Shown here: piece by piece, positions 7,079 to 52,884 of the stretch
Layout of the letters: every line of letters starts with the position of its first letter
Position numbering within the stretch: position 1 is the stretch's first letter
Source of the DNA: Escherichia coli
GTDB lineage: Bacteria; Pseudomonadota; Gammaproteobacteria; Enterobacterales; Enterobacteriaceae
DNA: 64,000 nucleotides
Assembly: GCF_002854065.1 (NCBI RefSeq)
Contig: NZ_CP024147.1
Direction: 5' to 3' (one strand)
Translations under genes and position numbers: made by a program
Notes under the pieces: model-generated
What the model was told of the DNA's origin: nothing
Database searches by the model: none
What the model saw: the letters and a program-made list of their open reading frames with translations, nothing else

Positions 7079-9134
7079 TATCATTACCCGCTAACTTCAG
7101 CAATCAAAATAAACTGGTGGTGAACGGTAATTTAACGATTTCCGGCGATTATGATGATTATCTGTCAGGTAATGGTCATCTGATTGTATTAGGTAATGTT
7201 ATTGTCGATAACTTTATTAATCATGATTTCGCGTATGTCAAAGGACAGATGACCGCGAAAGGTTTAGTTTATGCTGATTACAATGATCATAACTTTGAAG
7301 TGATGAAGGGAATTAGTGCGCGAGGCATTATTGTTTCCGATAAAGCAACGCAATTTGAAGTCATTAAAGCTGAATTTTATATCAATGAAGATGGAAGTGG
7401 TGAAGGATATAACTGGGATGAGAATATTCAAAAAGCCTATTCACTGGTGACTGCCGATCTTTATGATCACACTGAAATCGAAACCGATAACATTTCCAAT
7501 GCGTATCCTGACTATGATAGCGTCGCAGACAACATCGTTCAGGGTTTACCGCTTTTTCGAGATAAAGCCGCTCCTGAAATTAATGAGAAATTAAAATGGA
7601 TTGAAACGGGGAAACTCGATAATTTCCCAGCGAATAAAATAAAGCATCAAGATCCACTGGTGGCACGTTTGCTGACTCATACAGAGAGTTTATCACCCGC
7701 CGTTATGCTGCAACTGTTACAGCACCCCGATGACCAGACGCGTGAATCGATGGCGCAGTCCTGGCCCGCTCAACAGATGCATTTGCTTACCGATGAATTA
7801 ATTAAAGATGAGGCTGTTGCCAGAGGGCTGGTTAAAAACAGTAATATTTCCGCCGATGTGAATAAAAAATTAATGTCTGTACCCGTCGAGAGCGTACAGC
7901 TGGAGCAGGCCAGACAGGATAATCTTTCTCCAGATATTGTTGCGTCGTTAAGTCATAGCCCCTTTCTCAGTGTACGCAAGACATTACTCAGCCATTACGA
8001 TTACGCCTGGCTGGTTCCGACTGCAGTGGCCGATGAGTTGATAAATAACGAAGACCCGGAGTTACGTGAAAGAATTACCGGAGCAGATTTAACCGCACAA
8101 CAAGCAGTGATGTTGAGTAAAGATAAATCACTGAAAGTTCGTGAAGCATTAGCCCGGACGCTTACTGAATTAAAAATTACCCAACTGTCAGCAACCCTGC
8201 GTACAGAGGATATTGAACGTATCGCAGAACAAATGTATCTGGATAATAAAGAAAATAAAAATATCGTAAAGGCGTTATTGATAGCGTTGCCGGAGATGCG
8301 TCAACTGTCTCTGGCAAAAGAAGATGTGCACAATTTGCGCGAAGGTGCGCGTTATCTGACATCGAAGGACGTGATTAGTTATCTATTGACTCAGCATGAT
8401 GTTCCCACCGTCTGGGATGAGCTGGCACGCGATAAATTATTGCCGCTGGAATATAAGAAACAGTTATGGCAACGCACATTAAATTTAATGATGAGCAAAC
8501 GGCAAGAAGATCAAGAGCAAGCCTACGAAGTACAGCTGGCGCTGATTGATAATGGTGTTGTTGACGAAGAGATGTTAAATAATGCCATTGATTTACTGGT
8601 TGATTTACCCGCTGAATACCGCTATCGAATGCGTAACCAATTATTTGATAATAAAGATTTATCTTCCGGAATTATCAACAAACTCGATCAACAGTATCGC
8701 TTCAACTCTGACTGGGCGCTGTCTGTTGTCAGTATGAAAAATAGCACCCGTAGGCAAAGTGAAAGAGGATTACACCGCTGGAACCGTGAGGATAGCGATA
8801 TTTTTGCAGAACTGGCGACGATAAAAGATAAATCAGATGATGAATGGTGGCGTGCATTGCTGCAAAGTCGCAATGATCATTTGCGCCAAACGGCATTACG
8901 CAACGCACATACCCCGGCGTCGTTGTTAACGACATTGACTGAGCCTCAGGATCGGTCGCTGGCTATTAATAATCCACAGCTGGCTGCCGATGTGAAAACG
9001 GCGTGGTTAAAAGAGGATCCATCATTACTCTTATTTGTCGAACAACCCGATCTTTCGCTGTTACGTGATTTAGTGAAAACCGGGGCAACGCGGAAAATTT
9101 GCAGTGAAGCGCGTCACCGGCTTGAGGAAAAACA

Positions 9135-9590
9135 ATGACACAACGTCCATGGAGCAAGTTACAGCGGGAGATCTATGACTTACTGACGCCAACGATCAAC
9201 CTGCAAATTCACTGTACCCGTTATCCCATGCGCAGCCAAAATGGTGGAAGCACCGATTTACCGCGTTATTGGATCACGTTGGATAAAAACGTGATCTGGG
9301 ATTACCCGAAAGACTTTATTGCAGGTAACGGTGGAGTGCGTAATTTTCACGGTGAAACTTGCTGGTATCCTTACCTGACGGATATTTGTTCAATTTCTGA
9401 TTTATTGCGTGAATATATTGACACCCCAAAAGCGGAGTTGTTAACAAAACAATTTACCAGCGATAAATGGGGGTTAGTGAATATTCTGCGTGCTGCTGAC
9501 AGGCGAATAGGGATGAGGCGATTAGATCAGTTACGGCGTAAAACGCATAATATTGCTGCGCTAAAAATTATTGCCCGCCGTAGCGAATAA
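9135..9590 (+). CDS. hypothetical protein, 151 aa, translationally coupled to upstream repeat-protein gene
   Basis: ATG overlaps upstream stop (ATGA at 9135-9138); no motif recognised; [17 protein letters not shown]... Confidence 0.6.
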
Positions 9591-50483: not shown

Positions 50484-50883
50484 CTCTTAAAAAAATGCCC
50501 ACATAGTGTAGTGCGGAGCGCATGTTGGGTAAACAGAGTGTTAATGAGAAAATATTACAGAGGAGAATAATTTGTGTGTCAGGTATGTTTTTTGCATTCA
50601 TAAAATGAATGCTCTATATGTTGAAAAAATGAATTTTAAAGCTAAATAGTTTTACATCAAAAAAATAATAATATCATTTCTTGATTACCATGTGCATTTT
50701 TTATCTTACGAATATGCTAGTTTTATCTTACTAAATAAACGATTTGGTGACATGGATGATAATGTTTCAGGCTAAATGTGTGCTTATTACTTGGGCCTTT
50801 ATGGCACTGTATTTATTCATTAAATGGATGTTTGGTGGTTAATTATTATGGAAGTATATGACAGTGAGGACATAAAGGTATAC

Positions 50884-51819
50884 ATGTTAACTAAAAGAAT
50901 ATTATTTTCTTTAATGCTAATAGTTTCACCAGGCGTGGTGGCAAGCGAGAAAGCGCATGAATTGTATGACAGCATATACGGTGGTCAACCTGCGCCCGAT
51001 GTTATAAATACACTGCATAAAATGGCTGAATTGGGAGATGTCGACGCGCAGAGCCTGTTAGGCTGGGAATATTATCAGCCTCGCTATGATACCAAACCTG
51101 ATGTTCAGGAAGCGATTAAATGGTTCGAGTTAGCCGCTAAACAAGGTGACAGAGAAGCTCCGTTAGCGCTGGGGAGTATCTACTACATCGGTGAGCTGGT
51201 GCGGGTGGATTATGCCAAAGCGTATGCACTATTTAATCAGGCCGCGCAATACGGTGTGAATTTAGCATGGTCCAGGTTGGGCATGATGTACGCCAATGGT
51301 CAGTATGTTGAGGTAGATTGTAAGAAAGCGAAGGAATATCTTGATAAAGGTGTCCACATTTATGGTGGTCCGGAAGACTTTCTGGCTACATGTCGAAAAG
51401 ACATGATTGACAGAAAAACGGTTGACGATACGTTACCCGTGATCACGGTTACCCGTTCTGGGATGCGGGATAATTTTTTAGATAAAGATTTTTCCTGCAT
51501 GGATAGCCTCTTCGCCACCACCAATAAATTAGGCGAAGTGGCCAATCTTCGCGTGACATTCAGCATTCGTAGCCCATCCGGTAAGGAGATTAACCAAACG
51601 GTTGGCTTCGCGCCTTTCGGTTTAAACCGGCTGAATATTAGCTTTACTGATTACATATTTGATTCATTTACCAGTAATTCGTCTCTAATTCTTTATAAAC
51701 CGGAATTTGAGCGAAAATCTTGTGCAACTGTAAGGACCACAATCGTTGCCGCAACGGCAACCATTAACGGCAAGGATGTGGAGTTGCTGAAAGCGGGGGC
51801 AATTGAACAAAAGTGGTAA
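50884..51819 (+). CDS. Sel1-repeat (TPR-like) secreted protein with uncharacterised C-terminal domain; accessory
   Basis: ATG at 50884 after AAAGG RBS; signal peptide MLTKRILFSLMLIVSPGVVASE; Sel1 repeats (DAQSLLGWEYY, AIKWFELAAKQGDREAPLALGSIYYIGELVRVDYAKAYALFNQAAQYG, LAWSRLGMMYANGQYVEVDCKKAKEYLDKG). Confidence 0.75.
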   Translation: MLTKRILFSLMLIVSPGVVASEKAHELYDSIYGGQPAPDVINTLHKMAELGDVDAQSLLGWEYYQPRYDTKPDVQEAIKWFELAAKQGDREAPLALGSIYYIGELVRVDYAKAYALFNQAAQYGVNLAWSRLGMMYANGQYVEVDCKKAKEYLDKGVHIYGGPEDFLATCRKDMIDRKTVDDTLPVITVTRSGMRDNFLDKDFSCMDSLFATTNKLGEVANLRVTFSIRSPSGKEINQTVGFAPFGLNRLNISFTDYIFDSFTSNSSLILYKPEFERKSCATVRTTIVAATATINGKDVELLKAGAIEQKW

Positions 51820-51874
51820 CGCTGCTCAGCCCCCGGCTAAGGCAAAACTTGCCCTGGCGGGTGGCGATAATAAT

Positions 51875-52417
51875 CTAAGCCGCGAGAATATGCTGAATCG
51901 CCAAAAACATAGGTACAGCACCAAAAGCATTTGGTGTCGCTGAAAGCTGAACAAAGCCGAGACGAGCATAAAAGTTAATGGCGGCAGGGTCAGCATCAAG
52001 ATAAACCCCTTTAATTGGTAATGCCTGGTGAATTATTTTTACATGTTCAAAAAAATCACATAGTAGGTCCTGACCAAAGCCCCGCTTTTGATACTTCCGC
52101 GCCACCCCCAACATGACTAATCTGACAACACCAATCTCTGAAGGCTGTGAACCCTGAAGGACGCCAGAAACGCGTTGTTTTTCCAGCGAATATGCCGTAA
52201 AAGTACAGATGCCAATCAGTTCACCACTTTGTCTGTCAATAAGTGCTTTAGCCGCACAGTCGCTATTACGCACACTTTTCTTTAGCGATGTGCGTACAAA
52301 TTTATCGATAACAGGGTTACCGCAATCAAACTGTTTTTGCCCAGGATAAGTAATATCAGACTGATAATTACAGGAGAGGACTATGGGCAGAGTAATCTCT
52401 TCATGCTTGTCGACCAT
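51875..52417 (-). CDS. GNAT-family acetyltransferase, predicted type II toxin (TacT/AtaT/ItaT-like)
   Basis: 180 aa; FDCG motif near N-terminus, acetyl-CoA motif QKRGFGQDLL; overlaps upstream RHH/DUF1778-like ORF by 17 nt. Confidence 0.8.
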   Translation of the reverse strand: MVDKHEEITLPIVLSCNYQSDITYPGQKQFDCGNPVIDKFVRTSLKKSVRNSDCAAKALIDRQSGELIGICTFTAYSLEKQRVSGVLQGSQPSEIGVVRLVMLGVARKYQKRGFGQDLLCDFFEHVKIIHQALPIKGVYLDADPAAINFYARLGFVQLSATPNAFGAVPMFLAIQHILAA

Positions 52418-52712
52418 CGCTGTTTTTCCTTTTCATTAACGCCTTGAGTGCGAGCGTCGGTTGAGCAGGTTCGGCGATGAGTTGGTTCATCAGTTCCCAG
52501 CTTTGATTCGAAAGCTCACGGCGACGTTGGTTATCAAGCACGCTTTCGGCGCGTTCCATAGCAGCGCTCAAAATAAAGGCGCTTAAATCTAACCCAACGG
52601 CTTGCGCAGCTTCACGAAGTCTGTTTTTGGCGTCGGGACTGGTTTTGAGTTCAACCCGCGCATTTTTCAGCGTTTTATCGACATCGGGTAGAGTGGCTGT
52701 TTTTCCAGGCAT
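52401..52712 (-). CDS. predicted antitoxin (DUF1778 / ribbon-helix-helix-like) of the GNAT toxin
   Basis: 103 aa from ATG at 52710-52712 with AAGAGG RBS; MPGKTATLPDVDKTLKNARVELKTSPDAKNRLREAAQAVGLDLSAFILSAAMERAESVL; track ORF extends further upstream (52778) but lacks RBS. Confidence 0.7.
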   Translation of the reverse strand: MPGKTATLPDVDKTLKNARVELKTSPDAKNRLREAAQAVGLDLSAFILSAAMERAESVLDNQRRRELSNQSWELMNQLIAEPAQPTLALKALMKRKNSDGRQA

Positions 52713-52765
52713 TGTGACCTCTTTGATTAACTGAATGAAATCGTAGGGAGTCGATCTCATACATA

Positions 52766-52784
52766 ATACGGCTATCAACCGTAT
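52766..52784. promoter_or_regulatory. operator-like palindrome 1 upstream of the toxin-antitoxin operon
   Basis: atacgg ctatcaa ccgtat (ATACGG-N7-CCGTAT). Confidence 0.4.
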
Positions 52785-52819
52785 GATTAATTTATGTGCA
52801 TCTGCTCACTCTGTCAAGA

Positions 52820-52840
52820 GATACGGTTATTAGCCGTATC
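52820..52840. promoter_or_regulatory. operator-like palindrome 2 upstream of the toxin-antitoxin operon
   Basis: gatacgg ttattag ccgtatc (GATACGG-N7-CCGTATC), same half-site as palindrome 1. Confidence 0.4.
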
Positions 52841-52854
52841 TCTGATCTCAGACA

Positions 52855-52884
52855 ATAAAAAAGGTGCCGTAGCACCTTTTTAAT
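52855..52884. terminator. bidirectional hairpin terminator downstream of cyoE
   Basis: aaaaaa ggtgc cgta gcacc ttttt. Confidence 0.55.

Follow-up and report, generated by a model that had tools for sequence, protein, structure and literature searches.

A predicted minority allele of the chromosomal itaRT toxin-antitoxin operon of Escherichia coli

The gene pair and its translation signals

The window analysed in this work, that is the whole 64-kb stretch of E. coli chromosomal DNA, contains on its minus strand two overlapping genes that are named here after the toxin-antitoxin pair they match. The downstream gene, itaT (51875..52417, -), encodes a GNAT toxin of 180 amino acids and 19.8 kDa that begins with MVDKHEE in the list of open reading frames and that, according to this list, the match to the solved structure 7BYY and the comparison with E. 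coli HS, is a predicted aminoacyl-tRNA N-alpha-acetyltransferase. The upstream gene, itaR (52401..52712, -), encodes a protein of 103 amino acids and 11.4 kDa, which the reading frame, the Pfam match and the HS comparison point to as a ribbon-helix-helix (RHH)/TacA1 (DUF1778) antitoxin and co-repressor. The stop codon end of itaR overlaps the start of itaT by 17 nt (52401-52417), and direct reading of the sequence places a Shine-Dalgarno element, AAGAGG, at 52718..52723 (-), 5 nt ahead of the itaR ATG. The predicted masses of both proteins equal the published values.

Translation of itaR from the ATG at 52712 gives the 103-aa product, and identical genomes carry the same 312-nt coding sequence in RefSeq, which annotates both genes in genomes that are 100% identical over the stretch. 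A longer reading of ItaR, with 125 amino acids from a TTG at 52778, was rejected, given that this codon lies within the promoter-proximal palindrome, approximately at the predicted transcription start, and that the published mass of ItaR (11.4 kDa) corresponds to the 103-aa product (PMC6125619). The RefSeq labels are generic, being "GNAT family N-acetyltransferase" for itaT and "DUF1778 / TacA family antitoxin" for itaR.

Both proteins match their families far beyond chance. The acetyl-CoA motif QKRGFGQDLL occupies residues 110-119 of ItaT, where QKRGFG (110-115) fits the consensus Q/RxxGxG/A, and the motif FDCG is found at residues 30-33, aligning with the same motif of AtaT and KacT in a search of the PDB. 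In Pfam, ItaT matched the GNAT families Acetyltransf_7, Acetyltransf_10 and Acetyltransf_1 (E between 1.6e-7 and 1.9e-5), and residues 19-96 of ItaR matched TacA1 (PF08681, the former DUF1778) with E=2.8e-17. Among solved structures, ItaR matched KacA (3.5e-11) and AtaR (8.4e-9), as well as TacA-type chains. NCBIfam has no dedicated model for ItaT or ItaR and returned only generic sub-threshold matches to MshD, PaiA, MobA and RelB, and neither protein of the window matched any defence-system model of PADLOC. An earlier, sequence-only reading of this DNA had described the 180-aa GNAT frame with its QKRGFGQDLL signature, an N-terminal FDCG like that of TacT/AtaT/ItaT-type toxins, an upstream 103-aa frame starting at 52712 behind an AAGAGG element and an overlap of 17 nt between them; each of these was found in place.

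Promoter, palindromes and chromosomal setting

The region upstream of itaR contains one strong sigma-70-type match, TTGACA-17 nt-TAAATT (52789..52817, -), with 10 of 12 hexamer positions matched. It falls inside the 172-bp fragment of E. coli HS that has ItaRT-repressible activity (PMC6125619), and it is the predicted promoter of itaRT, with the exact hexamers taken from the motif match. A pattern search revealed two 19-bp palindromes of the form ATACGG-N7-CCGTAT around it. The distal one (52821..52839, with extended arms at 52817-52843) abuts the -35 hexamer, and the proximal one (52766..52784) starts 5 nt past the -10 hexamer and covers the expected transcription start, predicted near 52782; they are the predicted first and second operators of ItaR or the ItaRT complex. 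This pattern occurs twice in the 64 kb, against 0.06 occurrences expected, and none of 100 shuffled sequences reached two.

The palindromes are present in five E. coli alleles and in three plasmid homologues. Their cores are identical in HS, in O111:H8 strain 8234 and in strain 100117, and strain TCM3e1 has a single point change in the proximal copy. The homologues of Citrobacter freundii, Rahnella and Serratia display the same succession of elements, RTACGG-N7-CCGTAY, -35, a 17-nt spacer, -10 and a second RTACGG-N7-CCGTAY, and the distance between palindrome centres is 55 bp in the window and 55-61 bp in the homologues. The arrangement is thus kept at toxin identities of 62-79%, despite intergenic DNA that has otherwise diverged. 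Since it is maintained in such diverged plasmid homologues, the two palindromes are probably ItaRT operators.

Previous work with the HS allele is in line with this suggestion. The 172-bp upstream promoter fragment was repressed by the ItaR-ItaT complex but not by ItaR alone, and repression by the complex was independent of acetyltransferase activity (PMC6125619). The paired palindromes would fit operators of RHH repressors and would agree with this repression by the complex. We hypothesize that transcription starts from TTGACA-17-TAAATT and that the ItaR-ItaT complex may bind both ATACGG-N7-CCGTAT palindromes, which bracket this promoter. The terms "operator", "inverted repeat" and "palindrom" are absent from the main text of PMC6125619, and the conserved pair offers a concrete candidate for the unmapped ItaRT operator.

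The operon lies in a 2366-bp indel (50488..52853) that comprises a Sel1/TPR-repeat gene, itaT, itaR and their promoter, as delimited by blastn of the yajR-cyoE interval of K-12 against the window. In K-12 MG1655, which lacks this segment, only 148 bp separate yajR and cyoE, and 95 unrelated bp stand in the place of the 2366 bp. The GC content of the segment is 0.44-0.46, compared with 0.50 for the whole window. Its right-hand edge is marked by the intrinsic terminator of cyoE (52858..52881, -), a 10-bp stem followed by a T-run, which lies outside the module and is common to the window and K-12.

The gene order yajR, Sel1/TPR gene, itaT, itaR, cyoE is the same in the window and on the HS chromosome. 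It is also found in PapRG-06-5, a strain 100% identical across the 1201-nt query with coordinates collinear with those of the window, and in strain 100416, whose Sel1 gene carries an IS1 insertion. Among 5426 complete E. coli genomes, itaRT was found in 1368 (intact in 1367), nearly always as a single chromosomal copy. Our first search, with the 1201-nt query, matched 3182 genomes; the excess over 1368 is best explained by about 47 nt at the cyoE end of the query, which correspond to the cyoE terminator and are common to K-12-type genomes.

The Sel1/TPR-repeat gene (50884-51819, +) encodes a protein with a signal-like N-terminal sequence and is convergent with itaT. It is broken in several strains by IS1, an internal stop or a frameshift, with itaRT intact there, and it is absent beside the plasmid homologues of ItaRT. 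Because the operon persists where its neighbour decays and occurs on plasmids that lack this neighbour, itaRT is an autonomous unit, independent of the Sel1 gene.

Copies outside the chromosome are scarce. True plasmid copies of the ItaT clade were found in 4 of 72,556 records, and three further E. coli "plasmid" matches were discarded, as these records of 1.2-4.8 Mb are chromosomal pieces filed as plasmids. Carriage of itaT by phages was likewise rejected: only two unannotated records (6.5 and 2.3 kb) contained it, in a form identical to that of E. coli, and they are most likely fragments of host DNA. Throughout the 64 kb, no RNA family of Rfam reached its gathering threshold.

Other intervals of the window differ from E. 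coli HS. Between pgpA and yajO, a 531-aa frame (39271-40866, -) takes the position at which, by coordinate mapping, RefSeq annotates espY3, a type III secretion (T3SS) effector pentapeptide-repeat protein gene, in PapRG-06-5; the corresponding site of HS is devoid of genes. A Lys/Asn/Glu-rich frame of 489 aa (24975-26444, +) lies between malZ and acpH, at the position of a "hypothetical protein" of PapRG-06-5; in HS malZ and acpH are adjacent. Between ppnP and rdgC, two frames (7117-9138 and 9135-9590, +) occupy the positions of the DUF2773-domain and SF0329-family genes of PapRG-06-5, and HS carries at this place only a truncated DUF2773 pseudogene.

Identification as itaRT and weighing of alternatives

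The itaRT system was first described in E. coli HS (Wilcox et al. 2018, PMC6125619). In the search of solved structures, the best match of the window toxin was chain A of PDB 7BYY (E=1.6e-117, residues 1-180), with 178 of 180 residues identical. The protein crystallised for this entry was E. coli ItaT with the engineered substitution G115D, which inactivates it (PMC7367177) and accounts for one of the two mismatches, the window having the wild-type G115. The next-best structural matches were all toxins of toxin-antitoxin systems, namely AtaT, KacT and TacT. Compared directly with the HS proteins, ItaT is identical at 179 of 180 residues (99.4%), the sole difference being T43 here in place of A43, and ItaR at 101 of 103 (98.1%), with R31 and L41 where HS has K31 and V41. 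At the nucleotide level, 7 of 543 positions changed in itaT (six synonymous, one non-synonymous) and 8 of 312 in itaR (six synonymous, two non-synonymous), making 15 differences over both coding sequences, and 3 of the 184 nt between itaR and cyoE differ. The 17-nt overlap of the two genes is common to both strains. Since sequence, gene organisation and chromosomal position all agree, the locus is almost certainly the chromosomal itaRT type II toxin-antitoxin operon of E. coli, in a minority allele, and nothing was found that contradicts this identification.

The module is therefore already known, as a characterised ItaR-ItaT system with published target tRNA, structure and regulation. For the HS allele, expression of ItaT from pBAD was toxic, and co-expressed ItaR neutralised the toxin, with which it forms a tight, stable complex; ItaT acetylates the amino group of isoleucine on Ile-tRNAIle, so that translation is blocked at Ile codons (PMC6125619). 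Val-tRNAVal and Met-tRNAMet are also substrates, in vivo and in vitro, and become acetylated upon overexpression of the toxin (PMC7367177). Ribosome profiling revealed pausing chiefly at AUU and AUC, which identified Ile-tRNAIle(GAU) as the primary physiological target; as overexpressed Pth relieves the toxicity, the block lies at the elongation step (PMC9177977). In the structure, Y150 is the general acid, G115 contacts acetyl-CoA, and V36, I37, F40 and M102 form the aminoacyl pocket; mutants of these six residues showed that they are needed for toxicity or acetylation (PMC7367177). In addition, L133E at the dimer interface lowers toxicity, helices alpha1 and alpha2 are the proposed tRNA-binding surface, and the double mutant K46A/K47A is only slightly less toxic (PMC7367177).

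A position check showed that Y150, G115, Q110, G113, V36, I37, F40 and M102 are intact in the ItaT of the window, and L133 is present as well. As only one residue of the toxin and two of the antitoxin differ, and every functionally tested residue is unchanged, we infer with high confidence that the window allele has the same activity and target as the HS allele. As shown for the HS allele, ItaT would then act as a dimeric GNAT enzyme whose primary target is Ile-tRNAIle, mainly its GAU isoacceptor; the acetylated aminoacyl-tRNA would be unusable in elongation, and ribosomes would pause at Ile codons and growth would stop. ItaR, which by homology to KacA and AtaR presumably combines a ribbon-helix-helix domain at its N-terminus with a C-terminal tail that binds the toxin, would bind ItaT tightly, and the resulting complex would repress the itaRT promoter.

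The sequence-only reading had predicted a GNAT toxin paired with a DUF1778/RHH antitoxin and acting by acetylation of aminoacyl-tRNA, a prediction borne out by the identity to the HS pair at the same position. It had also held that the target tRNA was not readable from sequence; on this point it proved too cautious, as the identity to HS ItaT lets the published Ile-tRNAIle target be inferred. For the HS allele, all of the checks that it proposed were already in the literature: induction of the toxin with arabinose, alone and together with the antitoxin, acetylation in vitro, and a solved structure (PMC6125619, PMC7367177).

The locus could also be read as a housekeeping or non-toxin GNAT, RimI-like or acting on small molecules, that happens to lie beside an unrelated small frame, an interpretation to which the weak sub-threshold NCBIfam matches to MshD and PaiA-type GNAT models and the generic RefSeq label would lend some credit. 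It is refuted by the structure matches, by the identity to HS and by the TacA1 match of the antitoxin: a toxin of proven activity and solved structure shares 99.4% of its residues with the protein, whose next-best structural relatives are all toxins of toxin-antitoxin systems, and the partner is a TacA1/DUF1778 antitoxin. In each of the four homologous loci (E. coli HS and the three plasmid loci), the frames of antitoxin and toxin overlap by 17-26 nt. The probability left to such an enzyme is negligible. That the operon is a decayed, non-functional remnant of itaRT appears extremely improbable, even if pseudogene forms of the neighbouring Sel1/TPR gene in several strains indicate that this indel segment can decay. 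Neither frame is truncated or interrupted by a frameshift or a stop, and the promoter, the ribosome-binding site and both palindromes are preserved. Synonymous changes relative to HS outnumber the non-synonymous ones, and the strains with a broken Sel1 gene still have an intact itaRT.

A further question is whether descent from itaRT has gone along with an altered function of this minority allele, with T43 affecting tRNA preference or toxicity and R31 and L41 the DNA binding of ItaR. None of the three substitutions occurs in the four other E. coli alleles examined, which all have A43 in ItaT and lack R31 and L41 in ItaR, and only 25 of the 1368 itaRT genomes carry a sequence with 99% or more identity to that of the window, the HS type (about 98.2% identical) being the common allele. 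Moreover, T43 is located on helix alpha1, flanked by R42 and K46, two residues that are proposed to contact tRNA (PMC7367177). However, all three substitutions are conservative, the pocket formed by V36, I37, F40 and M102 and the catalytic residues are unchanged, and position 43 is free to vary among homologues, which have S, N or G there. A functional shift due to T43 is unlikely, since this position varies among homologues and even the K46A/K47A double mutation reduced toxicity only slightly, and an allele altered in the manner outlined is, taken as a whole, very improbable.

A wider proposal joins the two RTACGG-N7-CCGTAY sites, spaced 55-61 bp apart, as an operator design specific to this clade in which an ItaR-ItaT oligomer would bridge the sites, to a functional difference of the T43/R31/L41 allele. 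In this joint form we regard it as tentative and rather doubtful. Were repression to require such bridging of both palindromes by ItaR-ItaT, the failure of ItaR alone to repress would be accounted for; a clade-specific operator design or an altered allele, if real, would leave the identity of the system unchanged.

With the locus taken as itaRT, the finding matters little beyond annotation, in that genes with generic RefSeq labels can be named itaT and itaR and given Ile-tRNAIle as their target. The analysis makes modest additions to what is published, namely a candidate operator pair, the boundaries of the indel, the population frequency of the operon and a rarer allele with three conservative substitutions. 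It also places itaRT and a Sel1-repeat gene together in a 2.37-kb indel that roughly one in four complete E. coli genomes contain.

Comparison with related systems

AtaR-AtaT of E. coli O157:H7 and KacA-KacT of Klebsiella pneumoniae resemble the pair of the window in the FDCG and Q/RxxGxG/A motifs of the toxin, in the DUF1778/TacA1 antitoxin encoded upstream and in the acetylation of aminoacyl-tRNA. Nevertheless, AtaT and KacT are distant from the window toxin (E about 1e-6), and the antitoxins AtaR and KacA match at 1e-8 to 1e-11. The clades differ, ItaT belonging to clade B and AtaT to clade A (PMC9177977), and so do the preferred substrates, AtaT being biased towards Gly-tRNA. The TacA-TacT, TacT2 and TacT3 systems of Salmonella share family and chemistry with ItaT, including the reversal of toxicity by Pth, and TacA is the namesake of TacA1, the Pfam family of ItaR. 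The matches of TacT to the window ItaT are weak (E about 5e-4 to 3e-3), and TacT, TacT2 and TacT3, unlike ItaT, are specific for Gly-tRNAGly in vivo. TacT also acetylates TacA, whereas acetylation of ItaR was not detected in the purified ItaR-ItaT complex (PMC6125619).

Closer relatives are the ItaT-clade modules on plasmids of Citrobacter freundii, Rahnella victoriana and Serratia marcescens, with toxin identities of 79%, 69% and 62%, respectively, and antitoxin identities of 64-82%. They differ from the window operon in their location on plasmids and in the lack of a Sel1 neighbour; two of them have leaders of about 180 nt, and in Serratia the antitoxin carries an N-terminal insertion of 17 aa. 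On the 99-kb C. freundii plasmid pRHBSTW-00697_3, which may be a phage-plasmid, the ItaRT homologue (79% and 82% identity for toxin and antitoxin; locus L006, 1506-2660) adjoins a "baseplate protein" gene; here a long leader separates the promoter and palindromes from the antitoxin start, which is found about 190 nt downstream of them. With the window, these plasmid modules have in common the overlap of the two reading frames and a promoter set between two RTACGG-N7-CCGTAY palindromes.
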